Under the pieces are notes generated by a model. That model had not been told where the DNA came from, ran no database searches, and saw nothing but the letters and a program-made list of their open reading frames with translations. From positions 160,001 to 224,000 of the forward strand of contig CAVVPN010000011.1 of NCBI GenBank assembly GCA_963750165.1: 64,000 bases of DNA, given 5' to 3'. Made by a program: the position numbers and the translations under genes. Positions 47,619 to 64,000 of this stretch are shown here, in pieces (within the stretch, counting starts at the first letter, position 1; every line of letters starts with the position of its first letter). This stretch comes from an uncultured Gemmataceae bacterium (lineage in GTDB: Bacteria; Planctomycetota; Planctomycetia; Gemmatales; Gemmataceae).

Positions 47619-47754
47619 GGGATGCGCTCCTTTGGTGAGAAGGCCGGGCCGCCGGTCCGCTTCTCACGACGAAGCCGGCGGCACACGGCCAAAGGATTCA
47701 ACTACAACACAAGTATAAACTTCGGGCGAGCCAATCAAAGGCCAGTAGGGGCAG

Positions 47755-48117
47755 TTAATGGCGCCGGCGTTTCGCCGCTCGGGCTCGCGCCAGGTAGTAG
47801 CAGCGCATCGGCCAGCGCTCCCGCTCCCGCAGCCTTCGCCACAGCTGCCGGGCCGCTTCTTCTGCCTGCACCTTCGCCTTGGTCGTCTGGAAGAACGCTT
47901 CGGCAGCGACGCGCATCGCCGCCACGAACGCGGCATCCCGTAGCCAGCGGTAGACCGTCGCCCGATGCACCCCCGCCAAGCGTGCAGCTGGGGCAATGGC
48001 CAGCCGCTGACGGTAGGCGTCGAGGAATCGACGTTGCCGCTCACTCAACGCTGGCGCGGGGTTAACATCGGTTAGCAATGTGTCGCATCTGTCGCACGGC
48101 GGAACGTCGGCAGTCAT
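47755..48117 (-). CDS. HTH protein (small-terminase N-terminal/phBC6A51-like HTH)
   Basis: LSERQRRFL...AARLAGVHRATVYRWLRDAAFVAA. Confidence 0.65.
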   Translation of the reverse strand: MTADVPPCDRCDTLLTDVNPAPALSERQRRFLDAYRQRLAIAPAARLAGVHRATVYRWLRDAAFVAAMRVAAEAFFQTTKAKVQAEEAARQLWRRLRERERWPMRCYYLARARAAKRRRH

Positions 48118-48245
48118 GTTTCACCCCCCGGTGGTCACCTCTCGGCCTCATCGTCGAATAGTCCAGGCTGACTCTCGCCCTTCCGTTGTGGTTGCCGACG
48201 GGGCAGCGCCTTCACCTCAAGGGCGCGGTCTTCCCTTGCGGCGGT

Positions 48246-48800
48246 CTACCGTCGCTTGCCGATCCTTTTCATAGCCCGTTTCACGGTGGCGAAATCCATC
48301 CCGGTGTCGGAGGCCAGCAGGCGGAACAGCGCGTCGTGCTTGCGGCTCTCCTGGCAGCTGGTGTAGGTCAGGTCGTGGCAGCGCCGGCAGCCGTAGTAGA
48401 CCGAGTGCGCCGCCAGGTACAGCTTGCCGACGCGCCGCCCGCACGGGCGGCCGTTCTTGCTCAGCGGGCAGAGGAACCACCAGCGCAGCCCCCCGAAGCG
48501 CGGCCGGGTCGTGGCCAGGCGGACGGTGTAGTCGAGGGCCTGCCCCGTCCTGGTCACGGTGTAATGGAGGCGCACCCAGGGGTTCGCCAGGTCGAGCGTG
48601 CAAACCTCGTAGCCGATGGACGACGCCGCCTTCGTCGGGCCGATCAGCCAGTTCCAGCCGCCGGATTGGTGGACGCCGGCGGCGAGAATCTTCTCGCGCG
48701 TCCAGCGGTTGGCGTCCAGGGCAAGGCACCCCTCGACGACCGCCTTTTTGCTGGGACGCCACCAGTGGTAATACGAGGCACCGCTTCCGAGTCCGCCCAC
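48246..48800 (-). CDS. Cys-rich hypothetical protein of a type seen in integrated elements
   Basis: MGGLGSG...RFGGLRWWFLCP...CGRRVGKLY...GCRRCHDLTYTSCQES. Confidence 0.75.
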   Translation of the reverse strand: MGGLGSGASYYHWWRPSKKAVVEGCLALDANRWTREKILAAGVHQSGGWNWLIGPTKAASSIGYEVCTLDLANPWVRLHYTVTRTGQALDYTVRLATTRPRFGGLRWWFLCPLSKNGRPCGRRVGKLYLAAHSVYYGCRRCHDLTYTSCQESRKHDALFRLLASDTGMDFATVKRAMKRIGKRR

Positions 48801-49038
48801 GGCTATGCCCTCCCCCGATTATTCCTAAATCATGTACAAAAACTGCCATCCCGTCTGACGGCTTTTTTGGGCTATACTTTTCGCGGCAATGGCTTACGTC
48901 GATTGTGAAGGCGGCGTCTTGGTGCGCCACCACGATCAGTTTTCTTCCGTTTTGATGCCCTTTTGTTGGCGTTTGATGGTCAATCCGCTGCCGATTCGCC
49001 ACCGGCGATGGCGTTTTGTGGGCGCATCCGCCATGCCG

Positions 49039-49455
49039 TTAGGGGGCTTTTGTTCGCAGGCCGCAGCCCGCGCAGGCGATGGTTTTCCGGCTGTCCGACC
49101 AGAAGCACGGGCCGCCACACCGCCGGCAATTCCGGGACGCCCGGGGCCGCCAGCTGGCCCAGTCACACCAGGGCCAGCGGCCGCAACGCCAGAACGGCAC
49201 CCCCCGCGCCGTCTTGCGGACCACCACGCGGGCGCGGCAGCGGGGGCAGTCGCGGCGCCAGTCCACCGACGGGCGATCTACAGCGGGCCGGGCGTGCTTG
49301 ACCCGGCGCAGGGCCTGGCGCAAATCCGGGTCGCTGGCTTGCCAGCGGCAGACCGTCGCCACATGCACTCCGGCCACCTTGGCGGCCTTCCGCAGCGTCA
49401 GCCCGGCCCGGCGCAGCCGCAGAAGTTTCTCAATGATCGGGTCCGCGGCGTTCAT
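49039..49455 (-). CDS. HTH + C4 Zn-finger protein
   Basis: TLRKAAKVAGVHVATVCRW; CPRC...FWRCGRWPWC (topoisomerase-type Zn ribbon); ATGA-coupled to the upstream gene. Confidence 0.65.
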   Translation of the reverse strand: MNAADPIIEKLLRLRRAGLTLRKAAKVAGVHVATVCRWQASDPDLRQALRRVKHARPAVDRPSVDWRRDCPRCRARVVVRKTARGVPFWRCGRWPWCDWASWRPRASRNCRRCGGPCFWSDSRKTIACAGCGLRTKAP

Positions 49456-49787
49456 CGGCCCTCCCCACCGTCCTGGAAAGCGTGTCCGCAGGCCACGCAA
49501 CGCAGGATGAAGTAACTCCCGGTGAGCCTGCCGCAGTCCACGCACAGGCGGTCGAAACACTTCGGGCAGCGCCGGGCCGAGTCCAGCGGCCAGCGGCAGG
49601 CCGGGCAGCGCTCCAGGCAGTCCGGCCCGGTCAACAGGCCGATCAATCCCGCCCGGTGCGCCTGGATCAGTTCAGCCTGCGGGGCGTTCACCAGGAAGGC
49701 CGGCCGCCAGCGCAGCCGGGCGCCGTCCGTATCCAGTTCGACGCCCCGGGAACGGAGGTCCGCCAGCAAGGCGGTTGCTTCGTTCAT
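49452..49787 (-). CDS. TubC-N-like docking domain + Zn-binding protein
   Basis: ALLADLRSRGVELDTDGARLRWRP...LIQAHRAGLIGLL, then CxxC pairs; ATGA-coupled to the primase stop. Confidence 0.65.
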   Translation of the reverse strand: MNEATALLADLRSRGVELDTDGARLRWRPAFLVNAPQAELIQAHRAGLIGLLTGPDCLERCPACRWPLDSARRCPKCFDRLCVDCGRLTGSYFILRCVACGHAFQDGGEGR

Positions 49788-52700
49788 TGCCAGCCCCCCC
49801 ACCCCTCAGATTGCGTCCCAGACAAGATTTCCTCGGCGTTCGTCTCCTCCCCCGGACGAGACCGGCCCTTTCGGCCCACGGGCACGTTTACCTCAAAAAT
49901 GGAAGGGTTGCCGTGGGCCGCTGCGCCGTTCCCGTTACCGTTCCCGGCCCACGGTTTCGGCCCATCCCTGTCGTCGGCCTCGTCCTCCGGGCCGGTTGGG
50001 CCGGTTGTCGGCGCGGGGGGCAAGCCAGCCCACGCGATGTGCAGCACGTCGCGGCGGGCGCCCTGCAGCGTCTTGCGAACCGTCAACTTCTTCCGCGTCG
50101 TGTCCGTCGTGGCCAATAGCTCCTGTTCCTTCAGGCGTCGGCGGAGGGTGTGCGGCGTGATGCTGAAACAGTCGTTCTGGTCGCGGGCGAACTGCTGCAC
50201 GGCCGCGAAACTCGCGTCCGGCTCCAGGTACAATTCTCCGTCCGCCAGCCAGCCGACGCACACCCGCTGCGGCTTGTACCGGGTTTCGGTGCTCTCGCCG
50301 GTGTAATACTTCTCGGGCCGCCAACCCCAGCGCTGCGGCTCGGCGGGTTGGTTGCCGTCCTGGTCGGCGACGTGGGCGTAGCCGCTCGCCACGGCCGCCG
50401 CCAGCAGCCGCAGGAACAGCCCGGCCGGCTCCACGGTGGCGAGTTGGCTTGCCTGGGACGCGCCGGCTTCCGCCAGGGCACCCCATCCCCGTCGCCAGTA
50501 GTCCGCCCGATCCTGCTCCGAAATCGCGCCCACGGCCCGCGCGTAGTCGAGCAAGTAGCGCAGGCCGAGGGCCAGGTCGGCGACGATGCCCGGGGTCCGG
50601 GCGTGTTGCCCCGCGCTCCGGGCCTGGTCCCGCAGCTGCGCCAGTTCGTTCCGCAGCCGTGCGCGCACCGCTTCATACTGCGGCGCCAGCCAGCAGAGGA
50701 AACCGGCCAGGGCCGCGGCGTACAGCCCGGCGGCCGCGTCGCGCTGGCAGGCGCTCAAGGTCGGGTTGGGGTCCGGGGGCAGCGGGCCGAAGTCGCCGGG
50801 GGAGATTTCCAGCACCAGCAGCCGGGCGCGCAGGGACTGGCCGCGGGGCGTATCCTCGCCGGTGGAAAGCGTCAGCCCGCGGGGCGGCTTCGCCGGCCGT
50901 AGCGTGGCGTCGGCCTTCATGCGCTGCCGGCCGGCCCGGTTGCCCTGGCCGCGGAACAGCCGGTCGGCTTCCTTGTGGTAGCGCTGCACGTCGGCAGCTG
51001 ATCCGGTGGGGCAGAAGTCGTCCACGACCAGCAGCGCGTCTTTCGCCGTGAAGGCCAGCCCCTCCAGCGCGTTGCCCGTGGAACTCCAGCTGGCCGGCAG
51101 GTGCCGCGCGTCCATCTCAGGGCCGAAGTGTTGCTGCGCCAGGGCGGCGGCCTCGGACTTGTAACAGCCCGTCGGCCCGGCCAGGTGCAGGGCGAAATCC
51201 GTGGACCCCAGCGCGGCGCGGTAGACCGCGGCCAGCAGCGGGAACGTCAACCGATCCGGGCCGAGCCGCAGCAGCCCCAGGCTGGCCCGAACGGCGCTGG
51301 TGAGTCCGGCCGCCTGTCGCGCCGCGGCGGCACCTAACTCGCCGGTCAGTTGAACGTCACCCGGTTGGAGAAGGGCAAGTGGATGCGGCAGGCGGAAGCC
51401 GGCCAGGGGTTCGGGGAGCGCCACCGGGATGGCGTCGGTCAGCCCGTCCGCGCCGATGGCGCCGCCGGCGTGCAGGTAGAACCAACTCCCGTCGATCTGC
51501 CGCCAGCCGGTGTGCCGGTAGATTGTGCGCCGCGGCACATCGCCGGACAGCAGCTGCAGGGCCGTGCGCAGGTGGTCCTTCGTCCCCATGCCGGCGTAGA
51601 CGACGGCCCGCGTCCCCCAGGCGGGAACGGTCCAGCCCATGCCGGCAAACTCCGCGGCCGGCACCTCAGCCCGCGGCAAGGGCGAGCCGTCGCGCAGCGC
51701 CCCTTGCAAGGCCAGGCTGCGCGCCTGCTCGGCACCGTCGTCGTGAACCACGTCCTCCACGATCCGGGCGGAGAAGTTGCAGAGCGGCACCGGGACCGGG
51801 CCGTCCTTCGTCTGCACGGTGCGGTAGACGCAGCCGTCTTGCTCGAAGTAGGTGGGAGATTCCGCGCCTTCCGCGGGCGCGGCCTGGCGACGGAAGGGCC
51901 GCAATGCTTTGTCCAGGTCGCGGAGGGAAACGCGCTCCCGAATGGACGCGCGAACCGCGGCGAAGCCGGCAGGATCAGCCCCAGCCAGGTCGGCCAGTGC
52001 CTGCATCAACGCCTTGTCGCGGAACAGCGCTTCCGCGCCACCGCCGTCCAGCACGTCCTGCAACCGGGCCAGTTCATCGGGTGGGGCAGGTTCCTCATCC
52101 GCGGTTGCAGCGGCCAGCGTTTCCCGGATCGCCTGCAGCGCGACATCCCCTTGCAGCAGTTCGGGCGCCTTGCCGGCCGCGAGCAGGTCGTCCAGCCCCT
52201 TGCCGTTTGCCCCGTCCCAGCGTTCCAACTCGACGGCAAAGCCGGCGGCGGTCAGGGCATCGGTGCAGGCCAGGAGCGCCCGCGCCACGGTGGGGTTGTC
52301 CCAGGCGTCGGCGTCGAAGGCCAGGCGAACCGTTTTGCAGCCCAACTCCTTCAGCACGGCCAGCGCCGGCCGCCAGTTGGTCGCGCCGGGGACGGAGAGC
52401 GTCGGCACGCCAGTTCGGGCCTGGGTAACATCAGCCTTCAGTTCGCCTTCGGTCAGTCGCGCCAACTCGGCCGCCTCGGGAGTTCCCAAGGGGACGTGAA
52501 TCGGAGAACCCGGCCCTGGGCCGCCATGCCCCGCGGAAGAAACGTAGACGTAGCGGCGGTTCTTTTCGTCCGCGTCGTCTCTGCGCACCTTGAGGGCGAT
52601 GATTCGCCCGGTGCGGTCGCGGCACGGGACGATTAACCCGACCGGGCCGCGCAGCGTCAGGTAGTGGCCCGACGGCCCTTCTTTGACCACGACGCCCGGC

Positions 52701-53143
52701 ACGCGCAACAGCTTGTCCCCGAAGCGCTCGCGCAGCTCCCGGACGACCCGCGGCCGCCCCTGGCGTGACAGTGTGCCGTACCCGGCCTTGTCGATTACCT
52801 CATCCGTCAGGCCCCGCCGTTGCAGCGCTTCACGGTGCGCCTTGCTGAGCGGCAGCCGGGCCAGCAGTGCCGAGTAGACCTCGTGCAACGTGTCGGCGTC
52901 CGCCCGCTTCGCTTCCGGCCCCGGCCGCGGTGTGGGCGCGGCCTCGGGCCGCGGGCCGTCCGCCAGGCGGTGGAGGAAGTAGCGGGCGCCGTTGCTGTCT
53001 TCCTTCGAGCGAAAGCTGCCGTCCTCGACGCGCATGCACTTGCAGACGGCCCCGTCCGCCGTAACGCTGCACCAATCCGCACACCCGCAGACGGGACAAG
53101 GGGCGGCCCGAGAAACCCGGACCCAGTTGCGTTTCGTGTTCAC
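49784..53143 (-). CDS. Primase-helicase (Zn finger + TOPRIM/DUF3854-like + DUF927-like + P-loop ATPase)
   Basis: CPVC..DWC; LTEGELKAD and AFDAD (TOPRIM); LCNFSARIVED, HTGWR; Walker A GPTGCYKS; Walker B LLVVDD; LSTGE. Confidence 0.85.
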   Translation of the reverse strand: MNTKRNWVRVSRAAPCPVCGCADWCSVTADGAVCKCMRVEDGSFRSKEDSNGARYFLHRLADGPRPEAAPTPRPGPEAKRADADTLHEVYSALLARLPLSKAHREALQRRGLTDEVIDKAGYGTLSRQGRPRVVRELRERFGDKLLRVPGVVVKEGPSGHYLTLRGPVGLIVPCRDRTGRIIALKVRRDDADEKNRRYVYVSSAGHGGPGPGSPIHVPLGTPEAAELARLTEGELKADVTQARTGVPTLSVPGATNWRPALAVLKELGCKTVRLAFDADAWDNPTVARALLACTDALTAAGFAVELERWDGANGKGLDDLLAAGKAPELLQGDVALQAIRETLAAATADEEPAPPDELARLQDVLDGGGAEALFRDKALMQALADLAGADPAGFAAVRASIRERVSLRDLDKALRPFRRQAAPAEGAESPTYFEQDGCVYRTVQTKDGPVPVPLCNFSARIVEDVVHDDGAEQARSLALQGALRDGSPLPRAEVPAAEFAGMGWTVPAWGTRAVVYAGMGTKDHLRTALQLLSGDVPRRTIYRHTGWRQIDGSWFYLHAGGAIGADGLTDAIPVALPEPLAGFRLPHPLALLQPGDVQLTGELGAAAARQAAGLTSAVRASLGLLRLGPDRLTFPLLAAVYRAALGSTDFALHLAGPTGCYKSEAAALAQQHFGPEMDARHLPASWSSTGNALEGLAFTAKDALLVVDDFCPTGSAADVQRYHKEADRLFRGQGNRAGRQRMKADATLRPAKPPRGLTLSTGEDTPRGQSLRARLLVLEISPGDFGPLPPDPNPTLSACQRDAAAGLYAAALAGFLCWLAPQYEAVRARLRNELAQLRDQARSAGQHARTPGIVADLALGLRYLLDYARAVGAISEQDRADYWRRGWGALAEAGASQASQLATVEPAGLFLRLLAAAVASGYAHVADQDGNQPAEPQRWGWRPEKYYTGESTETRYKPQRVCVGWLADGELYLEPDASFAAVQQFARDQNDCFSITPHTLRRRLKEQELLATTDTTRKKLTVRKTLQGARRDVLHIAWAGLPPAPTTGPTGPEDEADDRDGPKPWAGNGNGNGAAAHGNPSIFEVNVPVGRKGRSRPGEETNAEEILSGTQSEGWGGWQ

Positions 53144-53221
53144 GTCTGGTAAACTCTCGTGTGGGTATCAAGCCTGTTCGGTGATGCGCCCAGCGATCTT
53201 CGCTGGGCGTGTCCGTTTCGT

Positions 53222-53289
53222 TGGGGCGGCCGGAAGTCGAACCGGAGAACAGGGGTATCAAGCCCGCTCGGCGACCACGCACCCACCCC
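53222..53289 (-). ncRNA. tRNA-like cloverleaf (not a canonical tRNA)
   Basis: GGGGUGG/CCGCCCC acceptor, GCG-UGGU-CGC mini D-arm, GAGCGGG-CUUGAUACC-CCUGUUC arm, CCGG-UUCGACUU-CCGG T-arm. Confidence 0.6.
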
Positions 53290-53308
53290 ACAATGCACTT
53301 TCTCGAAC

Positions 53309-53590
53309 TCAACGTTTGGCGGCCTGTTTTTGCAGAACGGCCCATCGGTCGTGGTCGGGCAAGCCGGCCCGCACCCATTCGCGCACGACTTCGGTCTGAA
53401 ACAGCACGCGCCGGCCCGCGACTACGCGACCGGGGATGTCGCGCGCGGCGTCCATGCGTCGCAACGTTCGGACCCCAAGGCCGGTCAGGGTGGCAAGTTC
53501 GGCAACGTCCACTAACAACTTGTCTGCCAGCGAGAGAACCGGGGCCTTGTCCTCCGACGGCGCGGTAAAGGGAATGATGTCAGTCGGCAT
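53309..53590 (-). CDS. AlpA/excisionase-like HTH protein
   Basis: LLVDVAELATLTGLGVRTLRRMDAARDIP...GRRVLF..EVVREWVRAG. Confidence 0.85.
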   Translation of the reverse strand: MPTDIIPFTAPSEDKAPVLSLADKLLVDVAELATLTGLGVRTLRRMDAARDIPGRVVAGRRVLFQTEVVREWVRAGLPDHDRWAVLQKQAAKR

Positions 53591-53765
53591 GGTACACCTC
53601 CCGACGGTGTTCCGAACGATTCGACGAGGTGTTCCGCGCCTGAGCGGTCTGGGCCAGGCGCAGCAGCCGGCGTAGCAGGGCCAGCTCTCGGTAGAGCCGG
53701 CCCATGTAGGTGTGGATGTCCCCGGGCGCGGGCAGGTGGTCCAGGGGGGAAGGGTCGGTATGCAT
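53580..53765 (-). CDS. Small hypothetical protein (61 aa)
   Basis: GGAGG RBS before ATG 53765; MHTDPSPLDHLP...ELALLRRLLRLA; overlaps the AlpA-like start. Confidence 0.6.
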   Translation of the reverse strand: MHTDPSPLDHLPAPGDIHTYMGRLYRELALLRRLLRLAQTAQARNTSSNRSEHRREVYHAD

Positions 53766-53884
53766 GGTGCCTCCAGAACAAGGGGGTCTTGATCTGGAGG
53801 CAGTATGACTGAAGCGCCGCCGACGAACCAACGACGCTATCTGTCGGTTTGATCGTCGGTGAATCGTCGGCGGCTCGTCCGGCG

Positions 53885-55136
53885 CTAGCGGACGTGCAGG
53901 AGGACGTAAACCTCGCCGCGGCGCTTGGCGACCTCGAAGGGTTGGTTGATCTCGGCCAACTTTCGGTTGGTGCGGTCCTTCACCTTGTCCAGCGCCTCTT
54001 CCTGACCGGACTTGCAGCCATAAATCGCGTGATGAATCTCGGGGATAGGCACCTCGGTCCCTCTCCAGAGCAGCCGAAGCAGTTGGTACTGATTCCGCTG
54101 GAAGTGCTCCCCCACCCAGGACGGTAAGGTAGGCTCGGCAGCGGTCGCAGTTGGTGTGCATTTCTCCGGCGCGGTCCGCGCCGAAAGGGCCTTGCGGAAG
54201 TAGGCGAGCACGTCCCGCAGGTCGGCGATGCACCCCGCCCGGTCCATAGACCCGCGGCTCCACCGGGGCATTCGACAATCCGAGGTGGCGCACGATCAGG
54301 TGGGCATGCGTGACCAGCCCCCGCGGTGTCGGCAGATACCTGGGGCTGTGGTCGGAGTTGGGCGGGAGGTCGCCGCGGTCCTCAATTTTGGCCACATCGA
54401 TTGCGTAGTCGAACCACCGTTCGAGGTGGGGCAGCGTCCAGCCCGTCGAGAACACGTCCATCTCCCAGCCGTCGGGGAGCCAGGTCGCATCGTGCTGGCA
54501 GCCCATCAGCAGACAGCCGGAATGGTCCAGGTCGTGCAGGACTTCATCCCCGCAGCCATTTCTCCACACCACGGCCAGATGTTGGTTTCGCTTGACGTAG
54601 CGTATTTCACCGCGCAGTTCGGCATAGCCGTCCAGAGTCGGCGGCTCCAAGGCGACCACAAGCCGGCCCGTGTGCGGGGCGGGCACCTGGGCCGCTTCCT
54701 CCGTCGTCAGGTCCCGCACGATTTCCCAACCGCCAAATCGTTCGCCCCGGACGTGACGCGCTGGCGTGTCACCGCCGCAATCTGGTTTGGCGGTCCCCGT
54801 GGGGGCGTCCGGCCTCCGGTGTCGGGCCAGTTCGCGCAGTTCGTCCAGCTTGCGGCGGGCGCCGGCGGGCGTCCACACCTGATCGGTGGGCAGGTCGCGC
54901 ACCAGGCCGAGATCACGGGCGTGGGCGTATGCCTTGTTCACCTGGATGCTGGGATAGCAACGGGTGTCCTGCTGCGCATCGAGCCGGTCCAAACTGTCGC
55001 GCGCCTTCTCCAGCCAGTCAAGGAACTGCTCAAGGGTGGTAGGTGCCTCGGCCAGAGGTCCGTCTGTTTTTCCGCGGCTTGAATCCTGTTCTTTCATCTC
55101 GGCCTCCGGGGGTCTTCCGTCAACCGAACCAGCCAT
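53885..55136 (-). CDS. Hypothetical protein with C-terminal winged-HTH-like region (frameshift at ~54252)
   Basis: The N-terminal part of ORF 53580..55208 is protein-like up to ~54255 and continues in ORF 53885..54271 (QYQLLRLLW...EIHHAIYG...ALDKVKDRTNRKL). Confidence 0.55.
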
Positions 55137-55146
55137 TGTTCCGCCG

Positions 55147-56580
55147 TCACCAGTGCCGCCTCTGCGCGCTCCGCCGGCGTCTCTCCCGCCGGTAGCGCCG
55201 GGGCGCACCGCGGCCTAGCGCCGCGAGTTGATCCCACAAGTCCGGAATCTTGGGGAGAAGAAAAACCGAATCGTCGCCTTTGAGTATTCGGGCGAAATTC
55301 CCCGAAGTGTGGGGGACAGGCTGGCGCCCGGCTGCCAAATCAGCGCGAAGGTGGTGCAACCGCAGCCGAATGTTGTTGAGCAATTGTTCAACCGTGGGTG
55401 GGGCCGGATTCGCTTCCTCGTCGGCAGGATCGAGTGGCCGTTCGCCGAACGCCCGATGTGCCTTTTTGTAATCCTCCAGGCTAACTCCCTCTGGTGGCAT
55501 CTCGTGCCGTGTCAACCCATCAGGCCCGGGGTATGGGGTCCAGAGCACGTCCAGGATGAAAGGCAGCCAGAGGACGAACCGGCGAAGTTCATAGTCGAGG
55601 TATGCCTTCTCCAAATTGTCCGCTACGACCGGGATGTTCCCCTGTGCCCCCAGCACCAGCAGGGCGCAAGCGTACTTCATTGCCGCAGGCGCGGGCCGCT
55701 GTGCCGCTGCTTGCAGCCGCCCAATCAACTGAATTCGCTCGATGATCTGGTCGCACTCTCGCAGCGCGGCACCTAGCGCGACGATCCGTTCGGCCCAGAG
55801 CAGGAAACCATCCGGGCCGGGTTTTCGACCTTGCTCGTTTGCTTCGCTGGGGAACGCGGTAACACGCCCAAAGGCTGCCGCCAACCGTGCGCGGTGGCGG
55901 GCATGCTCCTCCAGCTTCTGCCTGCGTTCCTCTGCGTCACGCCTGGCGTCGGCTTGCTGCTTCTGCCTTGCTTCGGCTTCGGTCAACAGGCTGTCGATGA
56001 CCGAGCAAGGGTCAGACGGGGGCGGGGCGGCAGGCTCGCGCCGCCGAACCGGCGAGCGAACCGCTCGCTCGATGTCGCGGTGAATCCGGCTCAGCCATCC
56101 TGACGGCAGGTACAACGTGGCCAGCAGCGGGGCGGACTCTTCAGTGCAGGCTCGTCGCAAGACCATTTCAAGGTCCGCGGCACTGCAACTGGGGTCCGCC
56201 GCGCGGAGGGCAATGTACCTCGCCAGCCCGGCGCGGCGCCACTCGTCGCTGTCCTTGGGGATGTGCGTAGGCGGTTGCCAGTTGCGGAGTGCGTTCCGTG
56301 CCCGACACCCGCAGGCGCGAACGGCGTCCCCCCAGCGTTTCAACCGCCCCGCCCAGATGGTAAAGTGCTCATCCTCAGTGGGCCTGCGCCCCAGTTCGGG
56401 GCAGGCTTCATGAGCGCTCGGGAATCGCTGGAACCAGGCATCCCTCAAAGAGTCCAGCTGTCGGCGCCGGCCCGTGGTGAGGGCTTCGATCCGCTGCTCT
56501 CGCAGCCGACGTTCGCCAAAATTCGGGTCGGTCAGGATGTCAGCGAGAGGGTCGTTCGGGGGCAAGTCGGAATTCACCAT
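55147..56580 (-). CDS. Hypothetical helical protein
   Basis: Long ORF with a coiled-coil stretch; no recognisable motif. Confidence 0.6.
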   Translation of the reverse strand: MVNSDLPPNDPLADILTDPNFGERRLREQRIEALTTGRRRQLDSLRDAWFQRFPSAHEACPELGRRPTEDEHFTIWAGRLKRWGDAVRACGCRARNALRNWQPPTHIPKDSDEWRRAGLARYIALRAADPSCSAADLEMVLRRACTEESAPLLATLYLPSGWLSRIHRDIERAVRSPVRRREPAAPPPSDPCSVIDSLLTEAEARQKQQADARRDAEERRQKLEEHARHRARLAAAFGRVTAFPSEANEQGRKPGPDGFLLWAERIVALGAALRECDQIIERIQLIGRLQAAAQRPAPAAMKYACALLVLGAQGNIPVVADNLEKAYLDYELRRFVLWLPFILDVLWTPYPGPDGLTRHEMPPEGVSLEDYKKAHRAFGERPLDPADEEANPAPPTVEQLLNNIRLRLHHLRADLAAGRQPVPHTSGNFARILKGDDSVFLLPKIPDLWDQLAALGRGAPRRYRRERRRRSAQRRHW

Positions 56581-56979
56581 GACGCACTCACTCAGACGGG
56601 TCGGTTGGCGGAGGCGCGCGGTGAGTGCGACGCGCGACATCCGCCAACCGCATTGAGCCGTCCGCCTGGCCGGGTGGATCGGCTACCCGCCTTTTGGGAG
56701 TATACATGCGATCACAAAATCAAGAAAGGTGGCTTTCGAGAAAAGGCGGTCGATCTGGTGGGCCTGCTGCCCCAACGGGGGTTCCGCCCGACGTGGGGGC
56801 GGGCATGCGGCGTCGAGCGGAGCAGCGTCCACGGTTATTGTCATTGACTGGGCGCCGCGAGCCATAGGATCAGTTCGGGCGGATTTCTGTTTCATCACCT
56901 GCGTCAGGCGGGTAGGATAGCGTCAGTAAGGAGGGGGTGACCTCATGGCAGCCCCTGCTGGGCGGCTGAGGAGGGAGGC

Positions 56980-57035
56980 GATTTCCGGAACGGATTTCAA
57001 GGATTTCCGCTGCCATTATTTCGGCGAGGAGGACA
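56980..57035 (-). mobile_element. Transposon end (type A), orphan, element body to the left
   Basis: Reverse complement TGTCCTCCTCGCCGAAATAATGGCAG-CGGAAATCCTT-GAAATCCGTTCCGGAAATC; the first 26 nt are identical to the end at 60040. Confidence 0.85.
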
Positions 57036-57036
57036 G

Positions 57037-57596
57037 TGTGCCCCCTACGAAATAATGGCCGTAAACTCGGGCGAAATGCGTTCCGGAATTCGCCCGCCCG
57101 GATACCCCAGGTTCGTTCCCCGGCCATCCTACCCGGGAGCCGGCCGGAAGGAAAGCCAAAATCGCTGCCAGCCGTCCAGGACTCCTGAACGGGTGTTCCT
57201 GCTCGCCAACCGACGGGCGCAGCCGAGTCCCGGGGACACCGCCTGCACCCGGCCCCGGCCTGAGCCGGCGCGGCCGCCCACCAGGACAGGCGAAGGGGCA
57301 GACGAGGCACCGACACCTTCACCGTGGGTGCGCTTCGCCGCAGTGGTGACGCCCGGTCCCGATTTTCCCCTGGACACCGCGCGGCGGGTGGGATACACCA
57401 AGAGCGGTTCACTACGGCACCCCCGGCCTTGACGTGGGCCGCCTGGGTGTCAACCGCCCCCCAGTGGGTGCCAGTGCAGATGACGAGTCGTTCAGCCGTC
57501 ACGTCCGCGTCGGGCGTGACGATCTTCGGTTTTGGAGGGTGGAATTCCGGAACACATTTCAGCCCCAAGCGCGGCCATTATTTCGTAGGGGGCACA
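57037..57596. mobile_element. 560-bp non-autonomous element (MITE) with TGT...ACA ends (type B)
   Basis: 25-bp perfect TIR TGTGCCCCCTACGAAATAATGGCCG, plus a second box GAAATG(C/T)GTTCCGGAATTC at both ends. Confidence 0.88.
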
Positions 57597-58475
57597 GGAG
57601 ACAGCAACCTGTATAGATATGTGAACAATGATGCGACTATTACCGATCCGTCTGGCTTGCAACCTGATATTCAGTTTTTCAGTCGCGACCAAAAAGGAAA
57701 AGCAGTGGTCAATGCGGGTAATGCGGACGAATTAAAACAAGTCTTCTTACCCGGGACTCTGGTGATCGTGGGCGGTGGGTACAATGATCGTGTTGAGGTC
57801 GATGAAAAAGGCAACAAAATCGCCCGCGAAGGGGATTTGGCAACACTGAAAAGAATTTATAACAACCCCAACGGAGTTCAAAATAACAAGCTTGATCCGG
57901 GTACGAAGGGATTTCAAACGCCTCATACTGGCATGCTCTGGCTAAAGCAGGCAAGTAATGTGCAAGATCTCTCGAACATTATCCTTCAAGCGCTGGCGAA
58001 AAACGGCGGAAAGAAATTCACGCGGATTACTGTCATTGGTCATTGTGGGATTGGAAACCCCGAGAAGGTAAAAATTAATGCGCCTGGAGTAATGTTAACT
58101 GATGCGCGTCTCCAATACCAAAATCGCTACCCTGATCACACAAACCCCAACGTAAAGAAACTCTCGGGTCTCATCAATGACAAAGGAAACCTTGATGCAC
58201 TGAGGAATGCGCTCGATAAAGCGCTCGACCCGAAAGGCGTGTTACAATTCGCTGTTTGTGGCTATGAGAAGAAATTCGACACATACTCTAAAAAGGAAGG
58301 TGAATGGTTTAAGGACCTCCAGGGGTTGGCGAACGTGCTTAATCGTGTCGTTGTGCATCCGAATCAACTGATGCATTTGGAACAGAATGGTGTGACTTAC
58401 GAGCCGGGCGAAGATAAAGCGGCGGGGGTCACGAAAGAATCATTTATTTGGCGGATTGCTGAACCCAAAAAATGA
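57597..58475 (+). pseudogene. Orphan RHS C-terminal toxin fragment (caspase/DUF4347-like tip)
   Basis: GDSNLYRYVNN...TDPSGL is the RHS core end, followed by a variable low-GC domain with ITVIGHC and LQFAVCG. Confidence 0.8.
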
Positions 58476-58529
58476 CCTGGGCTTCCGCGCCGGAGTGAGC
58501 AAATAACTTTCCGACACCCTGAGACACAC

Positions 58530-59705
58530 ATGCGTTACATCATTATCAGCATGGCAACCGTGCTTAGCATGAATGCAGGTTTGTGCTGCATTTTTCAAAG
58601 CAATGCCGATTCCGATCAGAAACCACAAAACCAAGTAGATCGACAAAAGGCTCCCCCAAAGGGGCGAGCGGATCAGGAAAAGATCCCGCCGAAAGAACCA
58701 TCAGATATGGTTCTGAAAAAACTTGGGTTTTGGGTGGTTGGGAACCCGGTGACCGCCGTCAGTCATGCGGAAAGCACTGTTGGCGACGCCGCACTCGCAC
58801 ACCTCGCGGCATTCCCCAGGCTCAGGACTTTGTCGCTAGATACCATGTGGAACATCACTAGCAACGGTCTGAAATATCTGGAGAATTGCAACAGATTGCG
58901 AGAGTTGCGCTTAGAACATATGAAGAAAATCGACGACGAGGGCATGAAATACGTTGCCCGATTGACGAAACTTCGAGAATTGAGCCTTTGGGAAACCTCC
59001 GTCGGCGATGAGGGAGTGAAAAGACTGAGCCGCTTGGTGGAACTGGAATCCCTTAATCTTGGCTGGACGAAAGTCACCGACGAGGGCTTGACCCAGTTGG
59101 CCAATTGCATCAAACTAAAAGAAGTGAGTTTGCCCGGAACGGGCATCACAGACCGTTGCATGCCTACCATCAACCGCTGGATAAACTTGGAGTCCCTTTC
59201 CATCTACAAAACCAACATTACGGACGACGGCTTGTTGGAGTTGAAGGATATGAAAAGGATTTATTTCCTTTGGATTCCCTCGTCGGTAGGAGATCGTGGT
59301 TTTCAACATCTTTGCGAATTCTCGTCTTTGCGTATCCTTACAGCGGACGGCACTCGGATCACGAACCAAGGGTTGATACACCTAAGGAAACTGCCGAAAC
59401 TTGAACAGTTGTCCTTAGGCAAAACGCCCATTGATGGAAACGGTTTGAGGCACCTCGCTAATTGTTTGAGACTGCGCAAATTAAACTTGTCCGGGACGAA
59501 GATCACGGATGTTTCTTTGTCGCATTTGAAGCCCCTTACGAGTCTCGAATCCCTCGATCTCAATGACACTAATATTTCTGATGAAGGGTTGGCTCATCTC
59601 GAGCAGTTGCACAATTTGAAAGAACTCTGGTTTCAACATAGGAAGATTTCAGAGAAAACGGTCCAGAAGTTAACAAAAAAGTTGCCGGGGCTGTTGATTC
59701 ACTAG
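58530..59705 (+). CDS. Exported leucine-rich repeat protein (candidate immunity)
   Basis: N-terminal hydrophobic signal and about 12 repeats of LxxLxLxxTxITDxGLxxL; low GC like the toxin. Confidence 0.88.
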   Translation: MRYIIISMATVLSMNAGLCCIFQSNADSDQKPQNQVDRQKAPPKGRADQEKIPPKEPSDMVLKKLGFWVVGNPVTAVSHAESTVGDAALAHLAAFPRLRTLSLDTMWNITSNGLKYLENCNRLRELRLEHMKKIDDEGMKYVARLTKLRELSLWETSVGDEGVKRLSRLVELESLNLGWTKVTDEGLTQLANCIKLKEVSLPGTGITDRCMPTINRWINLESLSIYKTNITDDGLLELKDMKRIYFLWIPSSVGDRGFQHLCEFSSLRILTADGTRITNQGLIHLRKLPKLEQLSLGKTPIDGNGLRHLANCLRLRKLNLSGTKITDVSLSHLKPLTSLESLDLNDTNISDEGLAHLEQLHNLKELWFQHRKISEKTVQKLTKKLPGLLIH

Positions 59706-59708
59706 TCC

Positions 59709-60039
59709 GTAAGCGCCCGGCCAATCACGTCGAGCCGTGCCAAAAGCAAACGGCGTCCACCCGCGGAACCCTGAGAGCCGCAGGTTGACGCCGTTGTTGG
59801 TTTGCTCTGTCTCTTCTCAGCCTGCCCAGGCTTCCCCGCTAGGTGACTCTCGGCCTCGCCGTAAGAGCCAGCGATCTGGCAGCCAGTCCTGTAATTGCTC
59901 TGCCGTTGGCCCGTCCCCCAGCGCGAACAGCCCCGGCAACGCCTCCCGCAGGTAACCAAACGGGTCGACGCCCAGATGCTTGCACGTCGCCACCAGCGTG
60001 TACAGCACCGCCGCCGTCTGACCCCCGGCCTCACTGCCG
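59709..60039 (-). mobile_element. IS66-family remnant (C-terminus and terminal IR)
   Basis: GTAAGCG terminal motif at 59709; minus-strand GSEAGGQTAAVLYTLVATCKHLGVDPFGYLREAL...WLPDRW (IS66 C-terminal domain), cut at 60039. Confidence 0.85.
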
Positions 60040-60137
60040 TGTCCTCCTCGCCGAAATAATGGCAGTCTGATCGCTGGAAATGGGTGCCGGAATTCGGCCC
60101 TCCCCTTCGCGGGTCCCCCCGCACGAAAGGAGGGCGC

Positions 60138-61597
60138 ATGTCCGCCCCGTCCCCCACCCCCGACCCGGCCGCGGTAGTGCCGCGGCCCGCCCCTCAGGCC
60201 CCCGACTCCGGCCCGCCAGTGCCGCCGGCCGACGTTGCCCCGCCCGACGAACCGCCCCGCGAGCGGCCCCGCCTGCAGCAGCCCGCCCGCGGCCGGCGCC
60301 TCGCCCGGCCCCCCGACACCCCCGCCGCGCCCCTGACCGCCGCCCAGCGCCTGCTCGTCCTCGACGCCTGGCGCCGCAGCGGCCTGCCCGCCGGCGACTT
60401 CGCCCCCCTGGTCGGCGTCTCGAAGCATACCCTGTACGCCTGGAAACGCAAGTTCGAGACGGACGGCCCCGCCGGCCTGGACGACAAGGCCCGCGGCGCC
60501 CCCGCCGGCAGCCGCCTGCCCGAGCCCACCCGCCGCGCCATCCTCATGCTCAAGGAGGCCCACCCCGATTGGGGCACCGAGCGCATCGCCGCCCTGCTGC
60601 TCCGCGGCCCCGCCCTGGCCGCCAGCCCCCAGGCCGTCGCCCGCGCCCTGCGCGAGGCCGGCTACGAGCTGGAGGAGGCGCCGACCAGGCCCCACCCCGA
60701 CCACGACCGCCGCTTCGAGCGCGCCGCCCCAACCAGCTGTGGCAGACCGACCTGTTCACCTTCGTCCTGAAGCGCCAGAACCGCCGGGTCTACCTGGTCG
60801 CCTTCCTCGACGACCACAGCCGCTTCCTGGTCGGCTACGGCCTGCACGCCAGCCAGTCCACGCCCCTGGTCCTGGAGGTCTTCCGCGCCGCCGTAGCCGT
60901 CCACGGCGCCCCCGCGGAGGTGCTCACCGACAACGGCAGCCAGTACGTCACCTGGCGCGGCAAGGGCGCCTTCACGAAGGAGCTGGAGAAGCGCGGCGTC
61001 CGCCAGGTGGTGGCCTCGCCGCACCGGCCGCAGACGCTGGGCAAGATCGAGCGCTTCTGGGGCACGCTCTGGCGCGAGTGCCTGGAGGCGGCGGTGTTCG
61101 TGGACCTGGCCGACGCCCGGCAGCGCGTCGGGCTGTTCATCGACCACTACAACTTCCAGCGGCCGCACCAGGGCATCGGCAACCTGGTGCCGGCCGACCG
61201 CTACTTCGGGGCGGCGCCGGAGGTGTTGCGGACGCTGCGGGCGCGGGTGGCGGCCAACGCCCTGGAGCTGGCCCGGCACGGGCTGCCCAGGGCGCCGTTC
61301 TACCTGACGGGGCAGGTGGGGGGCCAGCCGTTCAGCCTGCACGCCGAGGGCGAGCGCGTCATCCTTACGGACGCGGGCGGCGGCCGCCGCGAGGTGGACC
61401 TCGCCGCCCCGCCCGCGCCGGCCCCGGCGGCGCCGGGCGGGCCGCCGGCGGCGCTGCCCGCGCCGGTGTGCCCACAGGGGATCGTGGCGGGGCACCCGGG
61501 GGATGCGGAGGAGCCGCCGGAGCCCGGGGCCTCGCCGCTGGACGGGGGCCTGCGGCGGCTGGACGCGGGGCCGAGCCCGGAAGGGGGTGCGCCATGA
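60138..61597 (+). CDS. rve/DDE transposase 1 (IS481-like, N-terminal HTH; frameshift at ~60725)
   Basis: GVSKHTLYAWKRKF, HPDWGTERI; NQLWQTD, FLDDHSR, LTDNGSQY, GKIERFWGT, YNFQRPHQG; AGGAGG RBS. Confidence 0.92.
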
Positions 61598-62163
61598 GCC
61601 CCACCCCCTCCCCCCGGCGGCGCGGCCGACCGCCCGCCGGCACGCCCGCGCCGCCCGCGGCGGCACCCGCGCCGGCACCCGCGGCGGACCCGACGCCGTT
61701 CGCGGGAGCCAGCCCGGCGGCCCGGCGACTGGCGGCGACGATCCTGGAGGTGCTGGCCGGCAGTCTGCGGCCCGCGGAGGCCGGCCGGGCGCTGGGGCTG
61801 TCGCTGGCCCGCTACTACCAGCTGGAACTGCGGGCGGTGGCCGGGCTGGTGGCGGCCTGTGAGCCCCGGCGGCGCGGCCACGCCCCGGCCGCCGAGCCCG
61901 CCGACCTGCGCCGCGAGTGTGAGCGGCTGCGCCGGGAGTGCGCCCGGCAGCAGGCCCTGGTCCGCGCCGCCCGGCAGGCGGTCGGCCTGACGCTGCCGGC
62001 GCCGCCCGAGCCGCCCGCCGCCCGCAAGCGGCGCCCCACCGTCCGCGCCCTGAAGATGGCCGCGCTGCTGCAGCCGTTCGGGGACGCCGCCCCCGCCGCC
62101 CCCGCCGAGGCCCCGGCCGAACCGGCGGCCCCGGAGTGCCCGCCCACGCCGGCCCCGCCCTGA
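61594..62163 (+). CDS. HTH + coiled-coil accessory protein 1
   Basis: ATGA overlap with transposase 1; ILEVLAGSLRPAEAGRALGLSLARYYQLE, LRRECERLRRECARQQALVR. Confidence 0.75.
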   Translation: MSPTPSPRRRGRPPAGTPAPPAAAPAPAPAADPTPFAGASPAARRLAATILEVLAGSLRPAEAGRALGLSLARYYQLELRAVAGLVAACEPRRRGHAPAAEPADLRRECERLRRECARQQALVRAARQAVGLTLPAPPEPPAARKRRPTVRALKMAALLQPFGDAAPAAPAEAPAEPAAPECPPTPAPP

Positions 62164-62257
62164 CCGTGCGCCCGGCGGCGTCCCCCGAAGCTAGAGTTGG
62201 CCGGGGCGGGCGGCGGTCGCCTGCCCCGGCATTTGCGTTTTTCTGGAGGGCGGGTCG

Positions 62258-62689
62258 ATGACGCGGGGACGAAGGCCGGAGTGGGACGCGGCGGTGGGGC
62301 GGCTGGAGGGCTCGGCGCTGGCCAAGGCGCGGCTGCTGGCGGTGCTGGACGTGCTGTCAGGAAGGCGGACGGTGGCCCAGGCGGGGCTGCCGCTGGGCCT
62401 GGGCGAGCGGCGGCTGCGGGCGCTGCGCGACCAGGCCCTGGCGGCGGCCCTGGCGGGGCTGGAGCCGCGCCCGGCGGGCCGGCCGGCGCGGGCGCCGGCG
62501 GGGCCGGACGCGCGGGTGGCGGCCCTGGAGGCCGAGGTGCGCGAGCTGCGCATCGGCTTGCGCGCCGCCCAGGTCCGCGAAGAGATCGCCCTGCTGCTGC
62601 CGCGGCTGCGCCGCCGGGGCGGCCGGGCGGCGGGGGCGACGCGGACCCGGCGGGTGCCCGCCGCGAGGAGCGGCGGGTGCAACGGCTGA
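62258..62689 (+). CDS. HTH + coiled-coil accessory protein 2
   Basis: GGAGG RBS; VLDVLSGRRTVAQAGLPLGLGERRLRALR, LEPRPAGRP, VAALEAEVRELR. Confidence 0.75.
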   Translation: MTRGRRPEWDAAVGRLEGSALAKARLLAVLDVLSGRRTVAQAGLPLGLGERRLRALRDQALAAALAGLEPRPAGRPARAPAGPDARVAALEAEVRELRIGLRAAQVREEIALLLPRLRRRGGRAAGATRTRRVPAARSGGCNG

Positions 62690-63813
62690 CTGCCCCCGGG
62701 CAACCGCCCGGGGAACCGCGGCGGCGCGGGCCGGCGGGGCAGCGGGCGGCCCGGGAGCGGGAGCGGGCCGTGCGCGCCCGGGCGGTGGCCTTCTGCCGCT
62801 GGGCCGCCCGGCTGGGGCTGACGCGGGCGGAGGCGGCTGCACGCCTGGGGCTGTCCCTGCGGACACTGAGGCGCTGGGAGGCGCGCTGGCGGCGCGACCG
62901 GCTGCGGGCGGCAGCGCAGGGCCGGCCGGCGCAACGCTCCGACCGGGAGTTGCGCAACCGGGCGCTGGCGCTGATTGGGCTGCTGGGCCCGCGGGTGGGG
63001 CTGCCGACGCTGCAGGCGCTGTGCCCCGGGATGGCGCGCCGCGAGGTGGCCGACCTGCTGCGCCGCTACCGCCGGGCGTGGGCGCGGCGGCACCGGCTGC
63101 TGGCCCGGGTGTTGCACTGGCAGCGCCCCGGTACGGTCTGGGCGGTGGACTTCTCGGAGCCGCCGGCGCCGGTGGACGGCCAGTTCGGGCGGCTGCTGGC
63201 GGTGCGCGACCTGGCCAGCGGCTGCCAGCTGCTGTGGCTGCCGGTGGCGGACGAGACGGCTGCAACGGCCGCGGCGGCGCTGGAAGCGTTGTTCCGGGAA
63301 CACGAGGCACCGCTGGCGCTGAAGTCGGATAATGGCTCGGCGTTCGCGTCCGAGGAGTATGAGTCGCTGTTGCGGGCGTGGGAGGTGTGGCCGCTGCCCT
63401 CGCCGCCGCGGCAGCCGCGCTACAACGGCTCTTGTGAGGCCGGCATCGGCTCGATGAAGGCGCGAACGCATCAGCAGGCGGCGCGGGCGGGTCGGCCGGG
63501 GCGGTGGACGTGCGACGACGCCGAGGCGGCCCGGCTGCAGGCCAACGAGACGGCGCGGCCCTGGGGCGTCAACGGGCCGACCCCCGAGGAGGTCTGGCAA
63601 GGACGGCTGCCGGTGCAGGCCGAGAAGCGGGCGGCCTTCGGGGAGTCCGTGCGGCGGCTGGAGCGGGAGGCGCGGGCGGAGTTGGGGCATGGCCCAGACA
63701 CCGTGCTGGACCGCATGACGCAAGCGGCGGTGAACCGGGCGGCGCTGCGGCGGGCGCTGGTGGCGCACGGCCTGCTCCGGTTCACCACGCGGGAGCAGCC
63801 CGGCATGCCGTGA
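62677..63813 (+). CDS. rve/DDE transposase 2 (N-terminal HTH)
   Basis: GAGGAG RBS + GTG 62677; TRAEAAARLGLSLRTLRRWE; VWAVDF, VRDLAS, LKSDNGSAF, PRYNGSCEAG. Confidence 0.88.
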   Translation: MQRLTAPGQPPGEPRRRGPAGQRAARERERAVRARAVAFCRWAARLGLTRAEAAARLGLSLRTLRRWEARWRRDRLRAAAQGRPAQRSDRELRNRALALIGLLGPRVGLPTLQALCPGMARREVADLLRRYRRAWARRHRLLARVLHWQRPGTVWAVDFSEPPAPVDGQFGRLLAVRDLASGCQLLWLPVADETAATAAAALEALFREHEAPLALKSDNGSAFASEEYESLLRAWEVWPLPSPPRQPRYNGSCEAGIGSMKARTHQQAARAGRPGRWTCDDAEAARLQANETARPWGVNGPTPEEVWQGRLPVQAEKRAAFGESVRRLEREARAELGHGPDTVLDRMTQAAVNRAALRRALVAHGLLRFTTREQPGMP

Positions 63814-63837
63814 GCCGGCGCCCCGGGAAACGGACAG

Positions 63838-63870
63838 CGGGGCCGGGGGCAAGCGCTGCCCCCGGCCCCG
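63838..63870. terminator. GC-rich hairpin between convergent genes
   Basis: CGGGGCCGGGGGCA-agcgc-TGCCCCCGGCCCCG. Confidence 0.55.
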
Positions 63871-63877
63871 TGCCGTC

Positions 63878-64000
63878 TCAACCCGCCAGGGCGCCGGCGA
63901 CCTCGCCGAACGCCAGGGCGCGGCGGACGCGGTAGGCGGGGATGTCCTGGATGGAGTACCAGAGCCCTTTCCGCGAACGCCGCAGCCAGCGCCGCGGCAC
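63878..64000 (-). CDS. 3' end of a convergent gene (possible transposon cargo)
   Basis: Open to the window edge: VPRRWLRRSRKGLWYSIQDIPAYRVRRALAFGEVAGALAG*. Confidence 0.5.
   Translation of the reverse strand: MPRRWLRRSRKGLWYSIQDIPAYRVRRALAFGEVAGALAG

Follow-up and report, generated by a model that had tools for sequence, protein, structure and literature searches.

Insertion sequences (IS) of the IS481 family carry a single transposase gene, and IS26 has one enzyme as well, which belongs to another DDE group. In Tn7 the transposase is heteromeric and the ends are unequal, with TnsB as its only DDE enzyme, and the slot of an integron is the att site of a tyrosine recombinase. The locus described here lies at positions 60040 to 63813 of the window, the whole 64,000-nucleotide stretch of a Gemmataceae genome that was analysed (contig C11:160001-224000 of genome G000). 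Its four genes, A to D, almost certainly form one mobile element with two kept DDE enzymes, A and D. Coordinates are those of the window unless a contig is named; G numbers denote genomes (G000 being the window's), L numbers loci, and C11 and C12 contigs of G000.

The papers cited here describe one IS481 element with a single transposase gene (PMC11708052) and IS481 target duplications of 2-15 bp, mostly 6 (PMC10045372). The present element resembles IS481 in its TGT...ACA inverted repeats, in the helix-turn-helix (HTH)-rve layout of its transposases and in A, whose NF033577 scores lie on either side of the cut-off (one of three above it); it differs in having four genes with two rve enzymes (65 of 80 loci) and in the lack of a duplication of at least 3 bp in 53 elements. 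IS3-type elements make OrfAB by programmed frameshift (PMC11708052) and duplicate 3-5 bp (PMC10045372). The -1 phase of D at a slippery site in C (33/43), the OrfA-like C and abutted end junctions recall IS3, whereas the extra transposase A, the extra OrfA-like B, NF033516 scores under the cut-off, the missing target duplication and a one-base spacer set the element apart; copy-out junction spacers are given as 6-8 bp (PMC7780238). IS1202, a distant relative of IS481 and IS3 that forms circles with linked ends and duplicates 5-6, 16-17 or 27-28 bp (bioRxiv 2022.12.17.520857), shares the TGT ends and differs in its duplications and in its model, NF033594, which yields 15-80 here against a cut-off of 250. 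IS26/IS6 elements likewise show copies without flanking duplications, inverted pairs and direct arrays of ends around cargo, but IS26 leaves split 8-bp duplications (PMC4471558), which we do not find in 374 end pairs. Tn7, Mu and IS21 also encode several proteins per element; no ATPase family is present among A-D. Finally, a fixed slot with different genes inside a non-autonomous carrier is reminiscent of integrons and of mobile insertion cassettes (MIC) and miniature inverted-repeat transposable elements (MITE), the latter two named in PMC3281130. Here, unlike in an integron, the slot is an outward-facing pair of DDE ends and the cargo has no terminal repeat.

Neither the literature searched, which mostly leaves subscription papers outside its coverage, nor NCBIfam yielded a description of such an element, and this literature contains no IS with two different catalytic DDE subunits. 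The original prediction, made from the sequence of the window, had found no match to a described family, and to this extent it holds. Within the same reach this is apparently an undescribed, widespread IS family, akin to IS3 and IS481 and a full member of neither.

Gene order and the proteins of the family

The window copy begins with a left-type end:

60040..60104, plus strand: left-type (alpha) end with a TGT tip and two conserved boxes, facing gene A
60138..61597, plus strand: gene A, IS481-like HTH-rve transposase, with a frame change at about 60723-60730 in the assembly
61594..62163, plus strand: gene B, HTH and coiled coil, a paralogue of C, coupled to A via ATGA
62258..62689, plus strand: gene C, HTH and coiled coil, IS3 OrfA-like; the terminal slippery A-run of its homologues is missing
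62677..63813, plus strand: gene D, second HTH-rve transposase (D158/D218/E254), its C-terminus without the canonical tail that overlaps the right end

These coordinates agree with the predicted TGT end followed by four co-oriented frames, with the ATGA overlap of A and B, and with a start of D that overlaps C and has its own ribosome-binding site (AGGAG and GTG). The motifs named for A (QTD/TDNG/KIERF) and D (AVDF/SDNG/GSCEAG) are all present, and Pfam finds rve and HTH in both proteins and a weak HTH in C. No end-like sequence lies between the genes in the window, as had been noted. The claim that the window lacks an AAA+ ATPase stands for A-D, the part of it that was scanned for ATPases. A, taken for a single open frame, changes frame in this copy.

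A scan of all genomes gave 133 relatives, of which the best 80 were kept for locus counts. The proposed check of gene order across homologues returned A-B-C-D in 65 of these 80 loci, the remainder being ABD (2), BCD (2), CD (3) and D alone (8), with no internal end between genes in any of the 65. The elements are multi-copy and measure 3.4-4.8 kb between their TGT...ACA ends, and copies within one genome share identical boundaries (four in G294, two in G167, two in G276, three in G433). Conserved order, absent internal ends and shared boundaries bear out the prediction of a single element. Close A homologues occur in 20 of 401 genomes; five stop at a contig edge, and D lies downstream in 14 of the other 15. 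At the level of the phylum D has matches in at least 32 of 401 genomes; the corresponding figures are 10 of 201 for the order and 13 of 252 for the family. Record titles among the best 80 relatives name Planctomycetota, Acidobacteriota, NC10, Thermodesulfobacteriota, Elusimicrobiota, Gemmatimonadaceae, Eisenbacteria and Verrucomicrobiota groups. Plasmid and phage sequences gave no match to the element.

A second tier of A proteins (41-46% identity; one of its genomes lies outside the count) defines a sister group, L097-L110, with three genes: A', one HTH gene and a divergent D'. A D-like gene is found in 13 of the 14 loci fetched. These elements also have TGT...ACA ends, and none of about ten copies with placeable ends shows a duplication. 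In a quick tree with five outgroups A and A' form one clade (99 SH-aLRT) and D and D' another (96 SH-aLRT). Distances among A and among D proteins correlate (rho 0.43, p <=0.001; kin are not independent), and 13 of the 25 splits that have support in the A tree recur in the D tree.

Both DDE triads are intact, as predicted. D158, D218 and E254 are invariant in 26 of 26 D homologues from an unbiased HMMER set. Long intact matches to all four genes are present in 54 of the 80 loci and seven earlier ones, or in 50 once near-copies are removed; both triads are kept in 50/50, a count that is biased for D because the patterns of the all-genome scan contain two of its catalytic residues. Against NF033577 (IS481, cut-off 224) A scores 220.9, 230.9 and 210.1, so that one of three passes, and D scores 85, 46 and 70; NF033516 (IS3) gives 70-147, under its cut-off of 160, and NF033594 stays far under its own. 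Taken together, A lies near the IS481 cut-off and D far below all family cut-offs tested. The fold of D comprises HTH domains and an integrase core, and its fold search matches are retroviral integrases, as expected.

B and C are paralogues (99%), each with an HTH and a coiled coil (HTH_28/HTH_Tnp_1 in C); a fold search with B returned weak HTH matches only. An A-run near codon 125 of C contains a strict slippery heptamer in 33 of 43 cases, against 7 in 13338 control codons, and D stands in the -1 phase relative to C in 33 of the 43, in the +1 phase in 8 and fused in frame in 2. From this pattern, slippage at the A-run probably yields a C-D fusion like the OrfAB of IS3, and because the fusion is probable, C would be part of the second transposase and not a helper alone. 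The prediction of two OrfA-like HTH-coiled-coil helpers is thus right about the type of B and C and misses the likely role of C. In canonical copies the last codons of D fall within the right end.

Ends, target sites and back-to-back junctions

The ends are about 60 bp long, TGT-tipped and built around two boxes, and left ends have one extra base between the tip and the first box. This box lies at +13 in 33 of the 37 left ends that could be scored (52 in all) and at +12 in 35 of the 37 such right ends (66 in all); in an aligned subset the rule holds without exception (28/28 and 28/28). The same one-base difference is seen in the three-gene sister group. It points, indirectly, towards one form of the heteromeric transpososome that had been suggested for this locus, in which each end would have its own enzyme. 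In 17 of 70 left-type tips (e.g. 60040-60052), against 1 of 82 right-type ones, a stretch of 5-6 bases that resembles a Shine-Dalgarno sequence reads outward; neither start codons nor in-frame cutting just outside the ends show any bias or excess.

Target duplications of at least 3 bp are absent from all four-gene elements with both flanks (0/30, 0/14 and 0/9; 0/53 in total), and 2-bp flank matches, found in three of the 53, are at chance level. Long duplications of up to 30-40 bp were likewise not found at element flanks. A comparison of 374 end pairs in five genomes, which covered every one of the 22 ends found in the single-contig G433, gave 4 bp (three times) as the longest cross match that could represent a split duplication. 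We discounted a 6-bp match that the flanks of two G000 left ends share, as the cut repeat continues differently. The test itself works, since in assemblies of this kind five of six carrier elements, described below, have kept duplications of 8-9 bp. Where flanks could be named by Pfam (12 of 60 and 11 of 78 peptides), a gene is cut mid-way and the opposite flank is not its other half. The first eight bases outside the ends show a composition bias. Genes cut by an end mostly read outward, with ratios of 47:7 for right-type ends and 25:9 for left-type ends (187 outer flanks, 99 of them not called), against 278:283 in a random control. Simple insertion would predict opposite biases at the two end types.

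Targeting of RHS genes was considered and rejected. RHS matches occur in 8 of 143 flanks and in 2 of 1500 random windows, using models built from one to six G000 seeds, and two of the eight matches are themselves in G000; as rates are similar 0.6-6 kb farther out, the signal is one of island-level enrichment only.

Ends also occur back to back. Five junctions, all chromosomal, consist of an alpha end, one base and a beta (right-type) end: one in the window (57035-57037), two in G598 and one each in G532 and G512 (the other four being L349, L335, L323 and L347). G512 also has a junction of two beta ends separated by two bases (L077). The L335 junction in G598 sits, with its slot empty, in a carrier of 399 bp that has repeats and a duplication of its own. 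The same carrier, with identical arms, is present in three other places (L332-L334), where the slot contains 1516 bp with an acyltransferase gene. Paralogous carriers whose arms are 70-76% identical hold other genes, 2398 bp in L337 and 3532 bp in L339 (where the left carrier repeat was not found); such cargo comprises a sigma-70/HEAT gene, or WD40-Roc and DUF4365 genes. That homologous carriers hold different cargo implies repeated replacement.

All these carriers are non-autonomous, with GTA...TAC repeats, the 8-9 bp duplications (five of six pairs) and an inside-out alpha/beta pair. From the letters of their tips we take them to be IS66-like; the IS66 duplication is given as 8 bp in PMC3281130. 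None of the 13 inter-end segments checked has a terminal repeat longer than 2 bp. Slot contents have no second copy in G000 apart from a cut repeat, nor in G598 beyond the carrier copies and their paralogues.

Rearranged copies occur in other genomes. In G532 (L075, L080) C-D and the right end lie upstream of the left end and A-B, 2-2.3 kb apart, and in G547 (L072) C and the start of D are inverted between alpha and beta ends. Right-type ends number about 16 in G433 (L083, L246-L253). Many of them belong to a hybrid mini-element of 680 bp, and they form direct arrays around 3' pieces of Hint and toxin-like genes.

The window copy and its island

The copy in the window departs from the canonical layout. 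Its surroundings are as follows:

45789..64000, no strand: tRNA-Gln integrative island carrying A-D and all the ends and segments listed here
45795-45866: tRNA-Gln
45789-47618: tyrosine integrase
49784-53143: primase-like gene
56972..57035, minus strand: second alpha-type end, pointing away from A-D
57035..57037, no strand: junction of alpha end, one base and beta end
57037..57596, no strand: 560-bp non-coding unit with a beta end on each side
57597..60039, no strand: 2443-bp segment of low GC (0.50), flanked by a beta and an alpha end that turn their outer faces to it
58530-59705: leucine-rich repeat (LRR) gene in the 2443-bp segment
C11:225644: 44-bp tRNA repeat, past the window

The island measures 19.8 kb and presents, in order, the outward alpha end, the beta-beta unit, the 2443-bp segment and alpha-A-B-C-D. 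End models match at four places in the window only (57035, 57037, 57596 and 60040), and by the spacing rule 60040 and 57035 are left-type, 57037 and 57596 right-type. The right end had been expected beyond 64000; with two end models none follows D anywhere on C11. The motif proposed for it sits at 57011-57035, inside the window and about 3 kb upstream, where it belongs to a left-type end facing away from the genes. The ACA at 63834-63836 was rejected as a right end, having only five bases in common with the left end. At 63841-63872, 3' of D, a G+C-rich hairpin opens a region repeated in several G000 islands. Within the 2443-bp segment, positions 57597-58475 presumably hold an RHS-type C-terminal remnant, a label that follows a motif and has no Pfam match, and a cut fragment of a repeated element is probably IS66-like.

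Other copies in G000 share parts of this arrangement. The end at 60040 is identical to one at C11:1081027 and related to ends at C12:579486 and C12:1315180. The frame break in A recurs in a second copy (C11:1081027-1078042, 99.7%), whose D is interrupted by another element. Homologues of A have one frame, related contigs from four soil runs carry one extra base at the break, and the assembly has other frame breaks, e.g. in the C12 copy; the break may be an assembly artefact or a real lesion. The third copy, C12:1312558-1316526 (83%), lies near a tRNA-Pro; its ends follow one another as in the window (alpha, beta, beta, alpha), while its slot contents, of 826 and 1236 bp, are different ones. 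The beta-beta unit has a second copy at C12:1313385-1313943, 99.3% identical, with different flanks.

The nearest relative, L112, shows a junction, 385 bp and alpha-A-B-C-D amid resolvase and primase genes, again with no right end. The canonical tail is missing in all 12 close D proteins read (58-74%), and the closest D clade (at least 60% identical: L111, L112, L263, L284, L291 and the window) differs at its C-terminus and lacks a right end immediately behind D. Integrase, resolvase, ParB-methylase and primase genes neighbour this clade. We read the window copy as a derived one, with its end pair facing a slot of 2.4-3 kb upstream of the genes, and as part of an island-borne subclade whose ends face a variable slot.

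A proposed per-end, two-site model and its rivals

How might two enzymes and two end types work together? In the model that we propose, C and D would be fused by ribosomal or transcriptional slippage into a second transposase like the IS3 OrfAB, with B as the matching helper of A, and each enzyme would be fitted to one end type. In a copy-out step one end would be joined one base outside the other, giving the alpha-N-beta junction. The junction would then be reopened and its two ends joined to two separate target sites instead of one staggered site. For a whole element, the DNA between the target sites would be replaced, leaving no duplication and unrelated flanks; for an inside-out pair of ends, the DNA between the sites would enter the junction and be captured. 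As a whole we consider this the best explanation, with a probability of roughly one in two. A further-reaching version is more tentative and, in our estimate, somewhat doubtful: a DDE-DDE heteromer with two-site joining, whose junction acts as a reloadable, integron-like gene-capture slot that uses DDE chemistry and no cassette sites, and which carrier MITEs and islands exploit, often for 3' toxin remnants and downstream genes.

Several observations count against the model. No flank pair is joined in any sequence searched for pre-insertion alleles, so two-site joining is not directly observed. The beta-beta unit of G000 and the beta-beta junction of L077 speak against a strict alpha/beta rule. 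D evolves much faster than A (mean identity 38% against 63%), nine of the 25 supported A-tree splits are at odds with the D tree, L107 and L108 carry another residue in place of the first aspartate of D', and the 50/50 count for D carries the bias described above. As for slippage, 8 of 43 copies are in the +1 phase, 10 of 43 miss the strict heptamer, and the window copy has AGGAG-GTG ahead of D and no A-run. The empty carrier may derive from a filled one and not the reverse.

The two transposases could also belong to neighbouring ISs, an IS481-like A and an IS3-like C-D brought together by chance or at a hotspot. C-D alone does resemble IS3 orfA/orfB, and loci with D alone (8/80) or C-D only (3/80) exist; those D-only loci that were read are truncated pieces beside a right end, copies move with one pair of ends, and the lack of internal ends in 65 loci and the D gene behind A in 14 of 15 testable genomes leave this idea already contradicted and barely credible. 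A two-enzyme element might instead insert in the ordinary way, with a short duplication that is lost in every case through replicative, IS26-like rearrangements or through adjacent deletions at very high frequency, while slots fill by nested insertion and shrink by deletion until an empty junction is the end point. The base bias in the first 5-8 outside bases suits a staggered target, inverted copy pairs and orphan right ends are common, flanks are cut mid-gene, and adjacent deletions are described as removing IS150 duplications (PMC11708052). IS26, moreover, occurs without duplications despite its one enzyme, with no copy bearing a matching pair in the account of PMC4471558, which again weighs against our model. 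We nonetheless hold this explanation, the strongest of the rivals, to be unlikely: 0/53 is extreme when a duplication was kept in 69 of 83 events (PMC11708052), replicative inversion predicts split duplications that none of the 374 pairs shows, and deletion alone does not yield unrelated intact cargo in paralogous carriers.

Labour may also be divided by step, with one enzyme making the junction and the other integrating it, or D/C-D may be mainly structural. The beta-beta unit and junction and the differing rates of A and D agree with this, as does the requirement of copy-out for one asymmetric and one symmetric step (PMC7780238). Taken alone it leaves the fixed one-base end difference in both subgroups and the invariant D triad unexplained, and we regard it as improbable.

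What would the per-end, two-site model mean? Annotation pipelines currently label A and D as two unrelated transposases. Copy-out requires an asymmetric first step, for which known elements use one enzyme; here there are two, along with two end types one base apart in spacing, and this combination opens the question of asymmetry to a direct test by single mutants. If two-site joining and capture hold, the family would be categorically new, and a directional integration or segment-replacement tool may be possible. If the ends do join separate sites, each jump would entail deletion or capture. Planctomycetota, Acidobacteriota and other little-cultured phyla would then have a new way of acquiring genes and reshaping islands.

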